A stretch of DNA of 64,000 bases from Candidatus Saccharimonadales bacterium (lineage in GTDB: Bacteria; Patescibacteriota; Saccharimonadia; Saccharimonadales; EFPC-124): assembly GCA_050730875.1 (NCBI GenBank), contig JBOHNX010000002.1, positions 2,894-66,893 on the forward strand. The letters are read 5' to 3'. A program made the position numbers and the translations under genes. Positions 19-46,217 of this stretch are shown here, piece after piece. How positions within the stretch are numbered: position 1 is the first letter of the stretch; the number at the start of each line of letters is the position of its first letter. The notes beneath the pieces were generated by a model. The model worked only from the letters and a program-made list of their open reading frames with translations. It was not told where the DNA came from and did not search any database.

Positions 19-366
19 GTGTCAGATGAAGAAGTGGCCGCTAGGGGTTTGCTAAGGGTATTTATGCCGCCGTCTGACAAGTCCGGCTCCGAAGCAATGA
101 CCACTGACGGAAGAGTGGTAAGAGCCTATGAGATTGGCCGTCGTGTCGTCCCGCAGGGCAACACGCACACTATAGAGGTTGGCGTATTCCATGCACCAAC
201 AATTCCCGAAGACGAAATTGGCGCAACGTTATCGTTCAGTTCATATCGTGTTGCTTTAGCTGGCCCTCACATTCTTGTCGGCGGCTCAACCGAGCCTATC
301 GTGGGCCAGAAGCGGCTCGTCACACCAGAGCAAGCTGCAATGGTGAAAGAGCAACTCACAACCTAA
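19..366 (+). CDS. hypothetical protein (possibly 5'-truncated by window edge)
   Basis: 115-aa ORF from GTG at 19. The frame stays open back to base 1. No motif recognised. Confidence 0.4.
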   Translation: MSDEEVAARGLLRVFMPPSDKSGSEAMTTDGRVVRAYEIGRRVVPQGNTHTIEVGVFHAPTIPEDEIGATLSFSSYRVALAGPHILVGGSTEPIVGQKRLVTPEQAAMVKEQLTT

Positions 367-459
367 GTTTTACAGAAACCAAAATGAAGTATTTAAATTG
401 GCGTGCACAGTATGGTATGCTGTCTCGGCTACAGTTAATCAGAGCTACAGAGGGGACAT

Positions 460-1110
460 ATGGCAGTGCCTGGTGAAGTTATCGCTCCGCAGATTGGCGA
501 TGGCGACGAAATTTTAAGAACACAGATTAGCGGAAGATACAGTCTGGATAATCCAGGTGTTTTTGCATTTAAGCGTCAGCTTGTTGAGGCGGGCATTGAT
601 GTGGCATTCCCGGTCGGGGACGAAATTATAGAACATTCATGCGGTTTTGCTATCACCGTACCCCATGAAGCTGAAACGCCATTCCATACAACTGAAGTGC
701 AGTTCTTAAGGGAGATACGGGCAAATCCTCTACAGGTCACCTACAATATTTGGGGTGACAGGGACGGATACGTGGGCGAAAGTACCGGGCTAGAAACTGC
801 CTATGCCCTTCTACGCAACAAGCCCGTCGTTATGTTACGCGAACCAACAAGTTACTCCTCAACTATAGCGCCACCAATTAAGACCCTGATGGAAAAATAC
901 AAGGGTGCCGTACTCATTGAAAAGCTAGACAGACTAAGCATAACCGATCTTGCCGAGCGTCTGGCAGAGATTGCCCTAACGGAAGTAGACTATGGCCTGC
1001 CTGACGAAGAAGTGGACATTGTGATGAGAAGCGCATTAGCCCTCACTAAAAAATATAAGCGTGACTGGGACCAGTACCAAAATCTGCGACGCCTAGATGC
1101 CATTCGATAG
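460..1110 (+). CDS. nucleoside 2-deoxyribosyltransferase-like (Rossmann-like) protein, tentative
   Basis: 216-aa ORF. The block GYVGESTGLETAYALLRNKPVVML resembles the acidic-G-T-x-x-E-x-G-Y-A motif of NDT-like proteins. The match is weak. Confidence 0.35.
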   Translation: MAVPGEVIAPQIGDGDEILRTQISGRYSLDNPGVFAFKRQLVEAGIDVAFPVGDEIIEHSCGFAITVPHEAETPFHTTEVQFLREIRANPLQVTYNIWGDRDGYVGESTGLETAYALLRNKPVVMLREPTSYSSTIAPPIKTLMEKYKGAVLIEKLDRLSITDLAERLAEIALTEVDYGLPDEEVDIVMRSALALTKKYKRDWDQYQNLRRLDAIR

Positions 1111-3933: not shown

Positions 3934-4566
3934 TTGGAAAAGCGTTATACCGAAGAAGTAATCGAGCAGCAAGTACCCCCAGAAAGCGAGGTGCTTAATT
4001 TAATTGCGGAAGAAATTCCTCTCGAAGATATAACTAGTGAAGAAACGCAATCTCTAGTCAATAAGCTATTCCGGATAGCATATGGCCGTCAGGGCGATGC
4101 CAAGTACCCAACACTTGTAGGCCTTGCCGCTCCGCAAATTGGCGTGTCGAAACGAATCGTAATTATAGGTATAGATGCTGTGGGAAGTGGCGAGCAGCCC
4201 GAATTAAAAGAATTTATAAACCCAGAGGTTATTGAATCATCAGACGAACTAGAAGAAGGTCGTGAAGGCTGCTTTTCTACCAGTAGAGTATGTGGGATTG
4301 TGGAGCGTGCAAAAAGAGTAAAAGTACGAGCCTACAATCGTCAGGGCAAAGTGTTTGAATACGAATTTGAAGGATTTCCTGCCCGTATTGCTCAGCACGA
4401 GATAGATCACCTTGATGGGATTCGTTTCCCAGACCGTATTACAGATGACAGAAATCTCCATTGGGTTGAAAAAAGTGAATTTGGCGATTATCGTGAGAAC
4501 TGGCGCACCTGGCCAGTAAATTGCCCGCGAGAAAAATGGGAATTAATAAAGTCGGGCAAGCAATAA
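3934..4566 (+). CDS. def: peptide deformylase
   Basis: Three PDF motifs: GLAAPQIG, EGCFS, HEIDHLDG. TTG start with GAGGA 4 nt upstream. Confidence 0.9.
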   Translation: MEKRYTEEVIEQQVPPESEVLNLIAEEIPLEDITSEETQSLVNKLFRIAYGRQGDAKYPTLVGLAAPQIGVSKRIVIIGIDAVGSGEQPELKEFINPEVIESSDELEEGREGCFSTSRVCGIVERAKRVKVRAYNRQGKVFEYEFEGFPARIAQHEIDHLDGIRFPDRITDDRNLHWVEKSEFGDYRENWRTWPVNCPREKWELIKSGKQ

Positions 4567-23515: not shown

Positions 23516-23702
23516 TGGAGGGCCATCTGGGGCTCGTTCATTTCTGGCTCACTCCAGCTAAAGCTTCCGTTCGGCTTAACGAGGATTCTTCGGACTGCCG
23601 CTGGCAGCCCTCAACCCAAGGACACCTAAAGGTGTCTTGGGCAAGCCTAGAAGATCATGCCATAGAAAAAGGACCTACGCTAAAAGGTAGGTCTTTTTTC
23701 TA
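23516..23702 (-). repeat. tRNA-associated miniature element, copy A (ends in 21-nt copy of the tRNA-Lys 3' end)
   Basis: 23516-23536 is identical to 23703-23723. There is an internal terminator hairpin at 23666-23699, a conserved 49-nt core at 23547-23595 and a hairpin at 23592-23610. Confidence 0.7.
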
Positions 23703-39753: not shown

Positions 39754-40155
39754 CTAGGAGAGCTTGTTGATTGCCGCGTGTACCGCATTGCGTTCTTGAA
39801 TAGTCAACTTATCGCAACCTAAGGCCTCGGGCAATGCAGCAATGATGTCGTTAATAACCTTGTTTCCTCTTTCGGTCAGCTGGAGGGTTTTAACGCGGCG
39901 GTCTTGCTCGCTTTCGGTACGGGTGACGAGGCGTTGAGTGACAAGGCGATCAATAATCCCGGTTGCATTCGAAGCGTCGCAATGCAGCTTTTGTGCCACC
40001 TCGCCCATTGTGGTGCCCCCTTGCTTAATCGCATAGAGTGCGCTCACCTGCGGAGGAGTAAGATCATAGCGTTCGGCAAGTCCAGCTACCGCAGTCTTCA
40101 TGACTCTCATCAGGGTATACAGGTCTTGGCATAGTTGTGAAGCACTGACTTCCAT
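39754..40155 (-). CDS. MarR family transcriptional regulator
   Basis: Winged-helix block LTPPQVSALYAIKQGGTTMGEVAQKLHCDASNATGIIDRLVTQRLVTR. Divergent from the MFS pump gene. Confidence 0.8.
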   Translation of the reverse strand: MEVSASQLCQDLYTLMRVMKTAVAGLAERYDLTPPQVSALYAIKQGGTTMGEVAQKLHCDASNATGIIDRLVTQRLVTRTESEQDRRVKTLQLTERGNKVINDIIAALPEALGCDKLTIQERNAVHAAINKLS

Positions 40156-40179
40156 GGTCGAATTATACTATAGGTTTAT

Positions 40180-40202
40180 AATATTTGACTACCTCAAATA
40201 TT
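40180..40202. promoter_or_regulatory. perfect 9-bp inverted repeat, candidate MarR operator
   Basis: AATATTTGA-CTACC-TCAAATATT in the 95-bp MarR/MFS divergent intergenic region. Confidence 0.4.
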
Positions 40203-40250
40203 TAGATATACTGGTTTCTGTATGTTCGAGAAATTAACAAAAGGAAACGT

Positions 40251-41735
40251 ATGATCGAAAAAGTAAAACATAAAGGCTTGGCATTGGCGGTACTTGCCGC
40301 TGCGCAGTTTATGGTGATACTCGATGCCACCATCGTGAACGTTGCCCTGCCTGCTATTAAAGAGGCTCTGCAATTTACAACCGACGCTCAGCTGCAATGG
40401 GTGGTTACTGCCTACGCCCTGCTCTTTGGTGGTTTTTTGCTGCTCGGTGGACGGCTAGCTGACCTATTTGGACGTCGTAAGATGTTTCTCGCGGGTGTTG
40501 TTGTATTTGCTGCTGCATCTCTGCTCGCTGGCGTGGCCCAGGATCCAACTCAAATTATTGTGTTCCGTGGGCTACAAGGTTTGGGTGGAGCATTGCTTGC
40601 GCCATCTGCCCTCTCGCTGGTTCTTTCTATTTTTAAAGAAGGTCCGGAGCGCAACAAAGCACTTGGACTTTGGGGTATGGTTGCCGCCGGTGGTGGTGCC
40701 GTAGGACTTATTGTGGGAGGTTTGCTGACTGAGTTTGTCGATTGGCGCTGGATTTTCTTCATCAATATACCTATTGCCGCAGCCGTGGTCACAGCCTCGC
40801 TTAAATACGTACCCGCAGTAAATCCTCAAGAAAAACAGCGAGTTGACGTGTTAGGCGCACTCACCATTACCGGTAGCTTAATGAGCTTGGTGTACGCACT
40901 TGTAATGGCTGCGGAAAATGGTTGGGGCGGCGCAAGCACCCTCATATCGTTTGCAGTTTCTGCGGTATTGATGACTGCCTTTATTGTGAACGAACTTCGT
41001 GTGCGTCACCCACTTATCGAGCTCAATATTTTTAAACGTCGCAACGTTACAGGTGGAGCACTGCTGCAGCTACTTATGCCAGCTGCGATGTTCGGCATGT
41101 TCTTCTACCTATCCATCTACTTACAGCAGATTCTTGGTTACTCACCTACTCAAACCGGCGTAGCTAACCTGCCGTTTACCCTCATGATTATCGTAATCGC
41201 CGGCTTCCTTTCTAAGAACATCGCCAAAGTTAATGCCAAGGCTGTATTGGTTATTGCGCCGCTGGTTATTGCTGCTGGTTTGCTCTTTTTTGCACGCATA
41301 CCACTCCAAGCAGATTATTGGACCGACATTTTGCCCGGCATTATTTTGCTAGCCAGCGGTATGGCGGCGGTGTTTGTTGTGACGACTATGGTTGCTGCTA
41401 GTGGTGTATCCCATAAAGAGTCTGGTTTAGTCTCCGGAATTCTAAACACCGGGCAACAAGTTGGTGGTGCGATTGGACTTGCAGTGCTCACAGTGGTTTC
41501 AACTGCGGCCACTGAATCTGAGATGGCAAAAGCATTCGGTAGTCCAAACCTTATTCCTGCTGCATTAGTGCACGGCTTTCAGCAAGGTTTCCAATTTGCC
41601 GCGCTGTTTGCTGTAGCCGCCAGCATTGTTGCACTTGTAGTGCTCAAACCTGCAAAATTCACCAAGAAGGATCTCGAACGGGAAGCCGAGGCCGAGGCCG
41701 AGGCAGAAGCTTTGCCGGCTATTCCAGGCGCATAG
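40251..41735 (+). CDS. MFS transporter, DHA2 (EmrB/QacA-like, 14-TMS) drug:H+ antiporter
   Basis: LDATIVNVALPAI, GRLADLFGRRKMF (motif A), 14 hydrophobic spans, acidic EAEAEAEA tail. Confidence 0.85.
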   Translation: MIEKVKHKGLALAVLAAAQFMVILDATIVNVALPAIKEALQFTTDAQLQWVVTAYALLFGGFLLLGGRLADLFGRRKMFLAGVVVFAAASLLAGVAQDPTQIIVFRGLQGLGGALLAPSALSLVLSIFKEGPERNKALGLWGMVAAGGGAVGLIVGGLLTEFVDWRWIFFINIPIAAAVVTASLKYVPAVNPQEKQRVDVLGALTITGSLMSLVYALVMAAENGWGGASTLISFAVSAVLMTAFIVNELRVRHPLIELNIFKRRNVTGGALLQLLMPAAMFGMFFYLSIYLQQILGYSPTQTGVANLPFTLMIIVIAGFLSKNIAKVNAKAVLVIAPLVIAAGLLFFARIPLQADYWTDILPGIILLASGMAAVFVVTTMVAASGVSHKESGLVSGILNTGQQVGGAIGLAVLTVVSTAATESEMAKAFGSPNLIPAALVHGFQQGFQFAALFAVAASIVALVVLKPAKFTKKDLEREAEAEAEAEALPAIPGA

Positions 41736-42359: not shown

Positions 42360-42444
42360 AAGTTCAGTATAGCGTATACAAAGTGCTGTAACCCGCCCGG
42401 CACCATACCCGAAGGAATGGGCCGAGCGGGTGCGACCAGCAGGG

Positions 42445-42951
42445 TCAGCGCCCGCCACCCGAGCAGGAGTCGCCCGAGCAGTAGGCAGAGCAATCGTGGC
42501 CGGTGTTGGCCCACAGCGGCTCGTCCACACCGATGCCGCGCTGCTTGAGGGCGGCGACAGTCCGGGCGATGTTGCCACTGCCGTAGTCGATGCCGTCCTC
42601 GTCCGACGGCGCGTGGTGGATGAACTGGCCGTTCAGCCCCTGACAGAACGCCGCGTACTCGCGGGTGTAGAGGATGAAGGTGTGCCAGCCGATGTCCACC
42701 AGCGGCGACGGCGAGTAGGACTCGGTGCTCGGCTCGGCGCAGAGCCGCAGGAAGGCGAGTGCCTGGTCCATGATGCGCTCGGCGAGCGCGGGGTCCAGGT
42801 TCTCGTCCTTGGCGATGCGGTTCGTCAGCCGGACCCAGAGCTGGTTGCTGACGAGGCTCTTGTTGGTCAGCTCGACGCTGGCCGGAGCCACGGAGGAGGT
42901 CACGGTCACGACCGTGGTCCTTTCTCTCGGTTTTACCCAGTGCGAATGCAC
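42445..42951 (-). CDS. hypothetical protein encoded in a high-GC block (actinobacterial-type composition)
   Basis: GC3-rich codons. GAGAAAGGA RBS suggests the GTG at about 42909 as start. Contains DIGWHTFILYTREYAAFC and a Cys/Gly-rich C-terminus (CSAYCSGDSCSGGGR). Confidence 0.55.
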   Translation of the reverse strand: MHSHWVKPRERTTVVTVTSSVAPASVELTNKSLVSNQLWVRLTNRIAKDENLDPALAERIMDQALAFLRLCAEPSTESYSPSPLVDIGWHTFILYTREYAAFCQGLNGQFIHHAPSDEDGIDYGSGNIARTVAALKQRGIGVDEPLWANTGHDCSAYCSGDSCSGGGR

Positions 42952-43200: not shown

Positions 43201-43357
43201 TTGGTCGGGGATAGCAGATTTGAACTGCGACATGTCTTGCTCGCTCGTAGTTCGCTACGCTCACCTCGCTCGGCCAAGCTAGGATTCCGTAAACTGCCAC
43301 TGGCAGTTTACGCCTCCGCGTCCCGAACGCGGCGCGCTCTCCCTACGCTACACTCCG
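43201..43357 (-). repeat. tRNA-associated element copy C: tRNA-Pro(CGG)-like 5' part + conserved insert + T-arm/acceptor/CCA (pseudo-tRNA)
   Basis: The 5' part folds as acceptor CGGAGTG, D arm GCGT-AGGGAGA-GCGC and anticodon arm CCGCG-TTCGGGA-CGCGG. A roughly 95-nt insert holds the hairpin at 43289-43311. The 3' part is CGCAG-TTCAAAT-CTGCT-ATCCCCG-A-CCA. The acceptor strands pair at only 4 of 7 positions. Confidence 0.6.
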
Positions 43358-43361
43358 CAAT

Positions 43362-44018
43362 CTATTCGCTCTCTTGTTTGGCTTGTTTGTCCAACTCTCG
43401 CAGATTAGTAGTAATCGGATTAGTTTTCAGTAACTTTGCAACAGCTAATGTATTGGCTACCATGTATCGAACTGTGCGATTTGTGTATAGATGTTTTTGG
43501 CCGGCCTCGATGTAGCTTGGCCCTGGGCCAGCTTCGCCCACCCAGTAGGTGTCTGAGTTAGGTGGGATTGTGCAGCCAAGGTGCATTAAGTTGCCAACAG
43601 TATGCGCCACTACGTTGTGTGCGCCGTCTTCGTTTCCGGTTACAATGACGCCCGCAACTTTATTGTAAAGCGGATACTGGCCGGTGGTTTTGTCACCTTC
43701 CATGTACGTGCCGTCGAGTCGCTCTACAACCATTTGGGCTACCGATGATCGCACACCGAACCAGATAGGCGAAGCCATAATTAAAATGTCGCAGGCTTTA
43801 ATTTTTTGCAAGATTGCCGGCCACTCATCGCCTTTGCCTTCATCCGAAGTGACGCCAAATTTTACATTGTGGTCAACCACTCGCACGACTTCGCACGTAG
43901 CACCTTGTGCTTCATAGAGCTTGATGGCTTTTTGAATGAGCACGTTTGTGTTAGATTCGGTCGGCGATCTTTTCAGGGTGCAGTTTAAAAATAGTACCTG
44001 TATATTCTGTTTACTCAT
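43362..44018 (-). CDS. NADPH-dependent FMN reductase / flavodoxin-like fold protein
   Basis: VLFLNCTLKRSP...ILIMASPIWFG pattern of flavodoxin-like NAD(P)H:FMN reductases. Confidence 0.8.
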   Translation of the reverse strand: MSKQNIQVLFLNCTLKRSPTESNTNVLIQKAIKLYEAQGATCEVVRVVDHNVKFGVTSDEGKGDEWPAILQKIKACDILIMASPIWFGVRSSVAQMVVERLDGTYMEGDKTTGQYPLYNKVAGVIVTGNEDGAHNVVAHTVGNLMHLGCTIPPNSDTYWVGEAGPGPSYIEAGQKHLYTNRTVRYMVANTLAVAKLLKTNPITTNLRELDKQAKQESE

Positions 44019-44197
44019 GACTCTACTCCGCTCGATTAAGTTCTATATTTATTATCCAACAAAATCACTATATTAATAGAATTGACGTTGTAAATTCTAT
44101 TTTGTCATAATGCTTATGGTTTACGTTAGTTAAGTTCCTTAACAGTGAGCTGCGGATTCACTGCAGCTCTGGTTTCACATGCCCTCCGGGAGGAATT

Positions 44198-44830
44198 GTG
44201 CGTAAGATCAGCAAGCTGTTCGCCTTGGCCGCTCTGGGCCTTGGCATGATGCTCGTCCCGGCGACGGCCACTTCGGCTGCGCCGGTGAGCGACAACGACG
44301 GCAACAAGCAGGCGGGCGTCAGCGCCGCTGCTGCAGATGTGTGCGTCCGGTATCTCAACCTCAACGCCGCCGGCCGCGTGTACGTCAGCACCTACGCCGA
44401 ACCGCGGACGTACACGTCCACGTCGTGGACAAACGTCAAGTGCGGTGGTACCACTGTCGCCGTGCCGCGTGGACGACAGGCGCTCCTCGACGTAAGCGTC
44501 GATGCCGAAGTCGACTGCAACGGCACCTCGGGCCAGTGGTGCCAGGGCCGTGTGGTGGTGAGCGGTGTCGAGGCCGACCCGGTGGCCGCCGAGCCCAGCT
44601 CGTTCAGCTGGGACAGCTCGTCCAGCGCGGTCAACGAGTGGGGAGCCCACGGCTTCAGCAGGTACGCGCGTGCGTCCTGCCCCAGCAACAACTCGTCGGC
44701 GTACTGCTACTACCGGCTGTACGTCCAGACCCGCAACCATGCCTCCGGCATGTCGCTCTGGCTGGACGATCTGACGGTCGACGTCGAGGTGCTGTACGGC
44801 ACGACGTACAAGTACACCACCTCGTCCTGA
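44198..44830 (+). CDS. secreted hypothetical protein encoded in a high-GC block
   Basis: GGGAGGA RBS + GTG start. Signal peptide MRKISKLFALAALGLGMMLVPATATSAAP. Strongly GC3-rich codons and several Cys pairs. Confidence 0.6.
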   Translation: MRKISKLFALAALGLGMMLVPATATSAAPVSDNDGNKQAGVSAAAADVCVRYLNLNAAGRVYVSTYAEPRTYTSTSWTNVKCGGTTVAVPRGRQALLDVSVDAEVDCNGTSGQWCQGRVVVSGVEADPVAAEPSSFSWDSSSSAVNEWGAHGFSRYARASCPSNNSSAYCYYRLYVQTRNHASGMSLWLDDLTVDVEVLYGTTYKYTTSS

Positions 44831-45004
44831 GCACTACCCAGTAGCAAGTAGCAAACTAACGTGAATCAGCGTCAAAAATTTTGCGTTTTTCTAATCATCA
44901 GAGTGGGAAGACGCGAACGGACGACAGGGGTGCTCCGCGATCCTTCGGGAATGCGGAGCACCCACTGCCAACTTGATTTTAGCATGTGGGAAAGTAGGCT
45001 TTTT

Positions 45005-45211
45005 TGTGATGTCGGGGATAGTTATTTCCCCTAGACGTTAGAGGACTCGAACCTCCGCATTGTTTTGCTTCGTAAAAATGCGTGCATTTTTACTACGGCC
45101 AAGCAAGGAAAACGTAAACATCCACTGGATGTTTACGCCTAACGGTCGGAGGTGCGAGCACTGCAGTCCCAGCAAGTAAAAAGAACGAGCACAAGACTCG
45201 TTCTTTTTACT
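45005..45211 (-). repeat. tRNA-associated element copy D (decayed, directly 3' of tRNA-Pro)
   Basis: Terminator hairpin 45176-45210, conserved hairpin 45114-45136, T-arm copy 45040-45057 and acceptor copy 45011-45021 separated by about 18 nt. Confidence 0.6.
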
Positions 45212-45288
45212 TGGTCGGGGATAGAGGACTCGAACCTCCGACCTCGCGGTCCCAAACCGCGCGCGCTAGCCAACTGCGCCAATCCCCG
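45212..45288 (-). tRNA. tRNA-Pro (anticodon TGG), CCA encoded
   Basis: CGGGGAT/TG/GCGC-AGTTGGCTA-GCGC/G/CGCGG-TTTGGGA-CCGCG/AGGTC/GGAGG-TTCGAGT-CCTCT/ATCCCCG/A/CCA. Confidence 0.95.
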
Positions 45289-45373
45289 AAATTGCCAGTG
45301 GCAATTTCGGTTTTCCTTGCTTGGCCTCGAGTGGAGGGGCTTGCCCCGAACGAGAGCAAAACAAGACGAAACT
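45286..45373 (+). repeat. tRNA-associated element copy E (partial, inverted relative to tRNA-Pro)
   Basis: Hairpin CCGAAATTGCC-AGT-GGCAATTTCGG (45286-45310, overlapping the tRNA 5' end), then TTTTCCTTGCTTGGCC, a hairpin and AGCAAAACAAGAC, matching copy D read on the opposite strand. Confidence 0.45.
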
Positions 45374-45401
45374 GCCTATAACAGGGCAAATTATACCGTA
45401 T

Positions 45402-46217
45402 TTACCTCAGTTTCTCAATAACCAAATTCACCGGCTTTATACTTTTGGCTAGGCCGGTTTTTGCATCGGCCGTTACTAACGCGGCGTTCAACTGGTATGG
45501 GCCGCCTTCGGCTATGTCGTTTTTTATTTTGACACCGTCGCGCCAACGCGAGATAATAATTTCTTTGGTAACACCGAGCGACGAATGCAGGGTGCCACAC
45601 ATGCCAACATCTGTTATGTGCGCGGTACCGTCTGGCAAGATCATTGCGTCAGCCGTAGGCACGTGCCAGTGGTCGCCGATTACCGCTGTTACACGGCCGT
45701 CGAGATAGTAGCCGATTACCCGTTTCTCACTTGAAAAATCACCGTGAAAGTTCACAATAATTGCGGCAAAATGCTGGTTAGATACCTGGGCTAAAAGCGT
45801 GTCGATTGCCGCAAGTGGATTGCTTGCTGGCACCACAGCCGGGAAAACCGTGCCGAGTAAGCTCACCATTAACACTGGCCCGGCATCGGTTGCCAGCACC
45901 TTCGCTCCCCAACCGGCTTCACTTCCCTGCTGATTTAAGGGTGCGACGACTGGCTCGCCTGGCTCTGCCAATAATTCTTTGATGCTTGGGCGTTCGATAG
46001 TGTGGTTGCCACCGCTAAAGCCGTCGACACCAGCTTTTTGCAACTCGCGCATGTGTGCGGTGCTCATACTTTTACCGTGGCTGACGTTTTCGGCCTGGGC
46101 AATAACAACATCTACTTTATATTTTTCGCGCAATTTGGGCAGTTCCTGGGCGATCACTTGCCGGCCGGGACGGCCCATAATGTCACCGATATATAAAATC
46201 CGCAGGGTTCCCGCCAT
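45402..46217 (-). CDS. ymdB: YmdB-family metallophosphoesterase (2',3'-cyclic-nucleotide phosphodiesterase-like)
   Basis: LRILYIGDIMGRPGR N-terminus, GGNH, FHG and HWH metallophosphatase motifs. Confidence 0.85.
   Translation of the reverse strand: MAGTLRILYIGDIMGRPGRQVIAQELPKLREKYKVDVVIAQAENVSHGKSMSTAHMRELQKAGVDGFSGGNHTIERPSIKELLAEPGEPVVAPLNQQGSEAGWGAKVLATDAGPVLMVSLLGTVFPAVVPASNPLAAIDTLLAQVSNQHFAAIIVNFHGDFSSEKRVIGYYLDGRVTAVIGDHWHVPTADAMILPDGTAHITDVGMCGTLHSSLGVTKEIIISRWRDGVKIKNDIAEGGPYQLNAALVTADAKTGLAKSIKPVNLVIEKLR

Follow-up and report, generated by a model that had tools for sequence, protein, structure and literature searches.

The described systems closest to the repeats reported here are the islands and prophages that tyrosine integrases place in transfer RNA (tRNA) and transfer-messenger RNA (tmRNA) genes, and the miniature repeats of bacterial genomes, including MITEs (miniature transposable elements with inverted repeats), REP/BIME, Correia and RUP/BOX sequences and the palindromic elements of Rickettsia. 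Islands duplicate the 3' part of the target gene from the T loop to the CCA end, leave a functional tRNA intact, and are accompanied by accessory genes that pile up nearby; miniature repeats are non-coding, hairpin-rich units of about 100 nucleotides with no enzyme of their own, present in many copies per genome in both orientations, nested or in tandem, and occasionally inserted into genes. We analyzed a window of 64,000 nucleotides from a Candidatus Saccharimonadales bacterium (assembly GCA_050730875.1, contig JBOHNX010000002.1, positions 2,894 to 66,893), in which a structured module of 80-83 nucleotides, found repeatedly beside tRNA genes, resembles both groups in these respects. Unlike islands, its repeat-bounded unit of about 110 nucleotides holds neither integrase nor cargo, one core serves many tRNAs, and it carries an extra inverted copy of the T arm and an RNA-like, strand-asymmetric fold, with no matches in viral or plasmid collections. 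Unlike miniature repeats, it lacks element-borne terminal inverted repeats and a short target duplication of fixed length: its two flanks come from the target tRNA, one as an inverted and the other as a direct copy, and it is strictly tied to tRNA and probable tmRNA genes, at constant spacing behind the terminator. We estimate a probability of roughly 0.55 that these modules are a non-autonomous, non-coding, structured repeat element that targets tRNA and probable tmRNA genes, with flanks that are made from the target or match it.

The locus of main interest is built around an intact tRNA-Pro(UGG) gene, one of five tRNA genes detected in the window by ARAGORN and Rfam. One copy of the module (D) follows its terminator, an inverted copy (E) abuts its 5' end, and a third (C) lies 1.85 kb behind it on the same strand, within an interrupted tRNA-Pro(CGG):

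45390-45418, minus strand: promoter-like site of tRNA-Pro(UGG), TTGAGA and TATAAT separated by 17 nucleotides (11 of 12 consensus matches)
45286-45368, plus strand: module of copy E, 83 nucleotides, opposite in orientation to the tRNA (59.3 bits for the covariance model hit 45283-45329); hairpin P1 45286-45310, box TTTTCCTTGCTTGGCC 45311-45326, hairpin P2 and 3' end 45327-45368
45212-45288, minus strand: intact tRNA-Pro(UGG) (ARAGORN; Rfam 63.4 bits)
45174-45211, minus strand: its intrinsic terminator, a 38-nucleotide hairpin recognized in the sequence, with the ACCA end of the tRNA within the stem
45138-45158, minus strand: leader of copy D, CTCGCACCTCCGACC, the reverse complement of tRNA-Pro positions 45-59 (14 of 15), then GTTAGG
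45058-45137, minus strand: module of copy D, 80 nucleotides (68.2 bits); P1 45113-45137, box 45097-45112, P2 and AGCAAAACAATG 45058-45096
45010-45057, minus strand: right flank of copy D, a direct T-arm copy, an insert of 17-20 nucleotides and the acceptor 3' strand ATCCCCGACA
44994-45009: truncated second terminator of copy D, where accessory DNA starts
43313-43357, minus strand: 5' part of copy C, tRNA-Pro(CGG) positions 1-46 (Rfam tRNA alignment)
43231-43312, minus strand: module of copy C, 82 nucleotides (66.0 bits); P1 43288-43312, box GAATCCTAGCTTGGCC 43272-43287, P2 and AGCAAGACATG 43231-43271
43202-43230, minus strand: 3' part of copy C, tRNA positions 47-76, with T arm CGCAG/CTGCT, acceptor ATCCCCG, A and CCA

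In each module an 11-bp hairpin with an AGU loop (P1) is followed by a single-stranded box and a variable second hairpin (P2). A covariance model built from P1 and the conserved box, run over the window with filters off, recovered exactly five copies, A to E, and no others; for C, D and E the E-values range from 1e-19 to 8e-17, far beyond chance. The initial annotation, made from the sequence alone, had grouped C, D and E as one element family tied to tRNA genes and sharing a hairpin, a box, a variable hairpin and a 3' motif; the covariance scores bear this out, and all four parts are present in each copy. Rfam 15, searched over copies A to E at the gathering score or at E < 0.01, returned nothing except tRNAs.

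Copy D is a standard member of the family, and its split tRNA 3' copy is the ordinary right flank in decayed form. The T-arm copy (45040-45057) is identical to tRNA-Pro(UGG) over 18-19 nucleotides; beyond an insert at about 45020-45039 the acceptor copy, 10-11 nucleotides at about 45010-45021, has ACATCA in place of ACCA, and the equivalent flanks at loci L004 and L033 are intact, exact copies of 29 nucleotides. The copy that follows tRNA-Pro(UGG) in L004, a relative among the closest, has nearly the same P2 as copy D, with P1 differing by compensatory pairs, and both leader and direct copy track the T stem of their own genome (GGAGG/CCTCT for copy D, GAAGG/CCTTT for L004); the two copies, at the same site, probably represent one lineage. 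Copy E has no tRNA 3' copy behind it, and its hairpin overlaps the 5' end of tRNA-Pro(UGG) by 3 nucleotides. The same layout recurs at L138, where two inverted modules abut the 5' end of tRNA-Pro. Upstream of copy E stands the TTGAGA/TATAAT site, a strong candidate promoter judged by its resemblance to the consensus, and pre-tRNA-Pro would therefore carry the antisense of E as its transcribed 5' leader. The position of the tRNA, the placement of copy D behind a terminator hairpin with split T-arm and acceptor copies and a replaced CCA, and the inverted copy E overlapping the tRNA had all been proposed previously, and they stand after ARAGORN, Rfam, local BLAST and direct reading.

The terminator of tRNA-Pro(UGG) is a resident feature, because homologous terminators occur in relatives at both a filled site (L063) and an empty one (L053). 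More generally, tRNA terminators in these genomes (window positions 23660-23702, 33491-33526 and 45174-45211, and many other loci) are long A-tract/T-tract hairpins whose stems take in the ACCA end of their own tRNA (ACCA...TGGT), so that the forming terminator would be in competition with the acceptor end.

The two remaining copies of the window lie elsewhere, each after the terminator of its tRNA:

23516-23642, minus strand: copy A, behind tRNA-Lys (46.5 bits)
33530-33695, plus strand: copy B, behind tRNA-His, a composite module followed by an exact 19-nucleotide copy of the tRNA-His 3' end

Copy A comprises a leader hairpin, P1, the box GAATCCTCGTTAAGCC, P2 and an exact 21-nucleotide copy of the tRNA-Lys 3' end, with terminators on both sides. 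In copy B the loop of the outer P1 contains a second partial hairpin and box (33560-33590), and the copy is consequently seen by the covariance model as two partial hits.

The distribution of the module outside the window was sampled in two ways. A degenerate 32-nucleotide pattern covering A, C, D and E retrieved 46 contigs from metagenomes, all of them true members with the full architecture; the contigs are taxonomically unassigned, save that several show RNase Y / YmdB / tRNA-Pro synteny, and the covariance model run on these loci found extra copies. Independently, 80 loci of relatives were retrieved by the YmdB-like gene that neighbors the tRNA, nearly all from metagenome-assembled genomes (MAGs) of Saccharibacteria/Saccharimonadales, with a best protein identity of 69%. 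Here a simple regular expression for the box gave chance hits only, and it was the covariance model that found copies, in 9 of the 80 species loci; in 7 of the 80, including the close relatives L002 and L004, a copy lies just behind tRNA-Pro. Altogether about 2 Mb of loci were examined, and pattern scan and model together yielded more than 60 further copies in Saccharibacteria MAGs and unclassified metagenome contigs. At least 13 tRNAs are occupied (Trp, Leu, Pro, Glu, Ala, Arg, Lys, Met, Gln, Ser, Thr, Tyr and His), as are tmRNA-like 3' ends at L114, L125 and L129, which are probable targets of this kind without an ARAGORN tmRNA call. The family is widespread and apparently undescribed; we found no description of it in the literature, which is weak evidence of novelty.

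Most copies conform to one layout. On the strand of the tRNA, the gene is followed by a terminator whose stem includes ACCA, a leader, the module, a direct copy of the tRNA 3' end and often a second terminator. The leader, of 25-30 nucleotides, contains the reverse complement of the T loop, the 5' strand of the T stem and often the variable loop, and ends in GACC; then come GATAGG or GAGAGGG, P1, the box UUUUCCUUGCUUGGCC, and P2, which is closed by UGC/GCA, with AGCAAGAC or GCAGAAUAAC at the 3' end. The direct copy begins in the T loop (17-24 nucleotides from the 3' end) or at C48 (28-29 nucleotides), runs to CCA and sometimes extends through the terminator. The gap between tRNA end and module measures 62-76 nucleotides in 27 of 32 standard copies, and terminator and module are always 10-30 nucleotides apart, with no cargo between them. 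Both flanks are specific to the neighboring tRNA: leaders score 11.7 against the reverse complement of the last 32 nucleotides of the cognate tRNA and 8.1 against non-cognate tRNAs (p = 2e-8), and downstream flanks score 17.1 and 8.2, respectively, against the tRNA itself (p = 1e-12). At L149 (approximately 1990-2230 and 4136-4300), each of two tRNA-Ser genes has behind it, ahead of the module, a perfect inverted duplication of at least 26 nucleotides from its own 3' half, mirrored around the terminator. The idea that the entire 3' end of the tRNA is copied in mirror image about the terminator was considered and rejected, since it holds in L149 only and L125 inverts only 13 nucleotides of the T arm.

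The conserved core has the marks of a structured nucleic acid, with covarying helices and strand asymmetry. Compensatory changes occur at 8 of the 11 pairs of P1, a level of covariation reached by none of 500 column shuffles, and in 26 of 43 sequences tandem G·A/A·G takes the place of the two pairs close to its base; P2 covaries as well in the largest subfamily. Wobble pairs are G·U on the module strand, and this strand is more stable than its complement in 38 of 40 copies (mean -30.9 versus -27.2 kcal/mol, p = 6e-8). Covariation, the one-sided G·U pairs and the folding asymmetry together argue that the structure has been selected on one strand, as RNA or as single-stranded DNA. A variant subfamily is represented at L002 (2320-2400 and 7357-7440), with the box TTTTCCGATTTTACGCC, the 3' part of which is complementary to the 5' sequence AGGCGTAAA, so that an alternative helix is possible. 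Several other identities for the module were dropped on reading the sequences: P1 as a terminator (the U tract is not conserved), coding on the antisense strand (ATG appears in some P1 variants only), Pistol or other small ribozymes (no Rfam signal), integron attC sites (no R/L boxes) and IS91-type targeting of GAAC (the junction does not follow GAAC).

Copy C departs from the layout in that the module lies inside a tRNA body, exactly between G46 and U47 (43313|43312 and 43231|43230). Its 5' part has the acceptor strand CGGAGTG, a D arm, an anticodon arm with CGG, and AGG; its 3' end is the 14-nucleotide sequence TTGGTCGGGGATAG, shared with 45211-45224 at the true tRNA 3' end according to local BLAST, preceded by a different T arm, CGCAG-TTCAAAT-CTGCT, whose stem contains a C·U mismatch. 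The gene is a mosaic of alleles found in relatives: the anticodon arm is identical to that of tRNA-Pro(CGG) in L013 and L027, the 5' acceptor strand is of the L002/L036 type (partner CACTCCG), and the 3' strand ATCCCCG is of the L013/L027 type; the two acceptor strands pair at only 4 of 7 positions. Aligned end to end with the Rfam tRNA model (RF00005), copy C contains a 78-nucleotide insert and scores 23.4 bits, below the gathering score of 29, and ARAGORN calls no tRNA on it. In relatives, tRNA-Pro(UGG) comes after YmdB, and tRNA-Pro(CGG) is next on the same strand, 50 nucleotides to 6.6 kb further on, in 15 of the 80 loci; five more loci have both genes within 10 kb in another arrangement. 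Given this synteny, and its colinearity with the CGG genes of relatives except for the module, copy C is the resident tRNA-Pro(CGG) gene, interrupted and chimeric; the module has destroyed it, and what is left is very probably a dead pseudo-tRNA whose function is lost. As it occupies the position of that gene, its interpretation as an attachment scar is ruled out. The initial annotation had already noted the 14-nucleotide tRNA 3' end, the different T arm, the CGG anticodon and the poorly paired acceptor of copy C, had called it a chimeric pseudo-tRNA, and had proposed the ARAGORN check; all this holds, as does the site of the module between variable loop and T arm, and only the module length of about 95 nucleotides needed correction.

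That copy C might nonetheless work as tRNA-Pro(CGG), the 82-nucleotide insert being a removable intron or a tolerated giant variable arm, we consider very improbable. The insert does fall precisely in the variable loop, where extra arms are structurally tolerated, and none of D arm, anticodon arm, T arm and CCA is missing; however, this reading has to contend with the acceptor and T-stem mismatches, the low Rfam score and the absent ARAGORN call, and by eye we saw neither a bulge-helix-bulge motif nor features of a group I intron, while the same module lies outside tRNA bodies in most copies. Two routes to the present structure can be envisaged. The module would have inserted directly into the variable loop of the resident gene, or a standard copy behind tRNA-Pro(CGG) would have been followed by a deletion of about 100 nucleotides (T arm, acceptor, terminator and leader) between two AGG repeats, one in the variable loop and one ahead of P1; the latter route would also explain why the acceptor strands come from different alleles, and either would leave a chimeric, dead tRNA. 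An independent assembly of the same locus, Logan contig SRR27067773_25642 (L153), stops about 2.1 kb past YmdB, near copy C, consistent with repeats breaking short-read assemblies. A look-up of the exact YmdB protein for strain variants returned one contig, with the same arrangement.

Several features of the distribution speak for mobility. The orthologous tRNA-Pro site is occupied patchily among species, being filled at L063 and represented at L053 by a homologous terminator without a module. Near-identical modules stand at different tRNAs (Arg at L116, Met at L130 and L150, Ala at L127); tandem inverted (L138), nested (copy B) and truncated second copies (L033) are found, both orientations occur, and copies lie inside pseudo-tRNAs in copy C and at L151. 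At the latter locus (230-480, minus strand), a pseudo-tRNA-Leu(UAG) holds one module in the T loop (T54/C56) and a second module-like hairpin in the anticodon loop, directly beside an intact tRNA-Leu(UAG). An insertion that looks recent is found at L125, where a 65-nucleotide direct repeat (64 of 65 identical) that starts in the T loop and takes in CCA and the entire terminator brackets an insert of 112 nucleotides made up of 6 nucleotides, a perfect 13-nucleotide inverted copy of the unusual T arm of the probable tmRNA, AGAGGG, the module and a linker. Inverted segments beside the module follow the local tRNA and not the element, and duplications range from 17 to 65 nucleotides.

These observations can be accommodated by a scheme in which the T-arm-complementary left end of the element would pair with the T arm of the target, the element would be joined at one end within the T loop or variable loop and at its other end past the terminator, and gap repair would then duplicate the 20-65 nucleotides in between, the enzyme acting in trans. 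Under such a scheme copy D would be a standard insertion behind tRNA-Pro(UGG) and copy E an inverted insertion in the 5' leader of the same tRNA. Certain findings weigh against a targeted mobile repeat. No transposase, integrase or reverse transcriptase was identified, so the case for mobility is drawn from distribution alone, and the comparison of L063 with L053 is a distant one and not between near-identical strains. At L121, L110, L120 and L139 the direct tRNA copy represents a different allele from the adjacent intact tRNA, and some flanks therefore travel with the module and are not copied from the tRNA at hand. That the box hardly varies is due in part to the search pattern, as the variant at L002 illustrates. 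Finally, the strand-asymmetric folding, tandem G·A pairs and conserved single-stranded box fit a host-functional small RNA too, and the P2 shared by copy D and L004, with compensatory changes in P1, could mean long-term selection and not selfish spread.

The last points lead to the alternative that the modules are small RNAs serving the host, each paired with one tRNA and built as a two-hairpin scaffold with a mimic of the tRNA 3' end (T arm, acceptor 3' strand and CCA) behind it and a T-arm-antisense segment before it. Such RNAs might serve as a decoy or spare 3' half for damaged tRNAs, as an external-guide-like partner of RNase P, or as a regulator with the UCCUUGCUUG linker as seed. Strand-specific folding with G·U and tandem G·A pairs, the box held single-stranded between the hairpins, the covariation of both flanks with the cognate tRNA, the closure of many copies by a terminator of their own (copy A, L004 and L125), and the retention of box and P2 between D and L004 would all be expected of them, and we give this alternative a real, if minor, share of the probability. 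It is harder to reconcile with the lack of any conserved promoter seen between upstream terminator and module, with the patchy occurrence among relatives (7 of the 80 tRNA-Pro loci), with copies that are inverted, tandem, nested, truncated or inside pseudo-tRNAs, with direct copies that are often decayed (D) or of a different allele (L121 and L139), and with an acceptor 3' strand that has no partner strand. A related but more speculative notion, to which we assign a lower probability, is that the modules are the RNA or single-strand part of a nucleic-acid-guided system aimed at the T arm common to tRNAs and tmRNA. They may belong to a programmable, guide-bearing mobile element, akin in its logic to bridge or omega RNAs, in which the left arm (T-arm antisense) and the right arm (T loop to CCA) specify the insertion junction, or they may be tRNA-specific "spare 3' half" RNAs for tRNA repair or monitoring.

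Slightly less probable again is the view first taken of this locus, that the modules are conserved arms of attachment sites, remnants of islands or phages with tyrosine integrases that had entered the T loops of tRNA genes one after another and were later mostly deleted. It draws on the direct repeats from T loop to CCA, exact over 17-29 nucleotides after most modules, and on the T loop as their starting point, reportedly a classic sublocation of integration in tRNA and tmRNA genes; probable tmRNA genes are targeted too, the displaced 3' part at L121 is a different allele from the intact tRNA, the terminator duplications at L125, L004 and L115 fit Campbell-type integration, and accessory genes adjoin D and C. 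Yet no integrase gene or remnant lies in the repeat-bounded element or near any of about 60 copies; clustering of open reading frames (ORFs) within 4 kb of 46 copies revealed no recurrent protein family except syntenic housekeeping genes, and Pfam assigned the window neighbors to methyltransferase, FMN_red, APH, MFS, MarR and YmdB only. A free or viral attP form was likewise not encountered: in IMG/VR a pattern of the A/B type gave no hits and a gapped general pattern gave 25, all lacking the hairpin and thus chance matches, and blastn found no match among phages and plasmids, collections in which Saccharibacteria episomes are poorly sampled. Further objections are the invariably short, cargo-free space between terminator and module, the single conserved core serving at least 13 tRNA targets, unlike attP arms that are specific to an integrase, the homologous tRNA-adjacent terminator at an empty site, and the inverted T-arm copy and RNA-like strand asymmetry, which integrase scars leave unexplained.

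The initial annotation had in particular seen the modules as the retained ends of a 1.6-kb cargo between C and D. The segment in question contains the following:

43362-44830: accessory segment with both genes below
43362-44018, minus strand: FMN reductase gene (Pfam FMN_red, 2.8e-17)
44198-44830, plus strand: gene of a 210-residue protein whose N-terminus resembles a signal peptide; the interval has about 57% GC

Its two genes, an FMN reductase and a high-GC secreted protein, had been correctly recognized, and so had its accessory character: the spacers between the two tRNA-Pro genes of relatives are unrelated in content and vary from 50 nucleotides to 6.6 kb, and no counterpart of the FMN reductase was present in the fetched loci of relatives (YmdB ±10 kb). 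For the 210-residue protein, a search of 5.8 billion proteins gave three distant homologues, and weak matches lie beside tRNA-Pro in L001 and L002. The spacer is thus a hypervariable hot spot in the lineage, with or without modules. Both genes are outside the repeat-bounded unit of D and form part of no module, and elsewhere more than 50 members of the family occur singly, each with repeats of its own that derive from the target and no cargo separating it from the tRNA; the idea of modules as ends of this cargo is therefore abandoned. Of the proposed serial integration and accretion at one tRNA, then, a single tRNA-tied family and an accessory segment remain, and the modules as island ends do not; the want of an integrase or recurrent gene, the missing viral and plasmid matches and the hypervariability of the spacer allow that proposal partial support only.

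The surroundings of the two tRNA-Pro genes show other signs of flux. Intervals of the 1-kb scale with 57-59% GC (44198-44830, plus strand; 42445-42951, minus strand; 42380-42578), compared with about 49% for the genome, hold two ORFs and the 5' extension of a methyltransferase ORF and lie just downstream of tRNA-Pro(UGG)/D and pseudo-tRNA-Pro(CGG)/C, respectively; they may be horizontally acquired DNA. Beyond copy C, a MarR-MFS gene pair (39754-41735) is a conserved neighbor of the locus in five relatives (L018, L024, L034, L042 and L138), and differences in its order and orientation among relatives suggest repeated rearrangement around the two tRNA-Pro genes. Elsewhere in the window, an accessory-looking gene for an APH-family phosphotransferase (32340-33266, minus strand) is also lodged among tRNAs, between tRNA-Arg and tRNA-His. 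Five contigs with YmdB/tRNA-Pro synteny (L001, L018, L034, L036 and L080) are filed under Magnetospirillaceae, Pristimantibacillus, Nevskiaceae, Limnocylindria and Dormiibacterota MAGs, and are probably mis-binned.

Three further classes of element invite comparison with the targeted repeat that we favor. Class C group II introns likewise insert a few nucleotides downstream of terminator hairpins; the module, however, is far too short, has no Rfam intron match and, read by eye, lacks group II domains (V and VI included), GUGYG/AY ends and a reverse transcriptase ORF. The mobile tRNA introns and split tRNAs of archaea (Thermoproteales and Nanoarchaeum) place related sequences at various tRNA positions, including the variable and T loops, and have leader segments complementary to parts of the tRNA. 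The present host, by contrast, is a bacterium, in which no splicing endonuclease is known; by eye no bulge-helix-bulge motif is apparent, the interrupted genes (C and L151) look dead, and most modules lie outside tRNA bodies. The bridge RNA of IS110 and the omega RNAs of TnpB/IscB set a scaffold between target-complementary and target-identical segments, as do the modules, with their junction in the T loop. Here the likeness is one of logic only, as the modules have no adjacent recombinase or nuclease gene and no sequence or Rfam similarity to these RNAs.

Saccharibacteria have tiny genomes with single-copy tRNA genes. A family that colonizes the flanks of many such genes, and sometimes kills one, bears on how far selfish DNA is tolerated in tiny genomes, and on why accessory genes concentrate in the downstream flanks of tRNA genes even where no integrase is at work. 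Of practical concern is that the repeats break assemblies and can mislead the annotation of tRNAs. A conserved scaffold with one inverted and one direct flank, both matched to the target, goes beyond the standard schemes of transposition and integration; behind it may stand a new mechanism of targeting or, within the Candidate Phyla Radiation, a new class of small RNAs linked to tRNAs.

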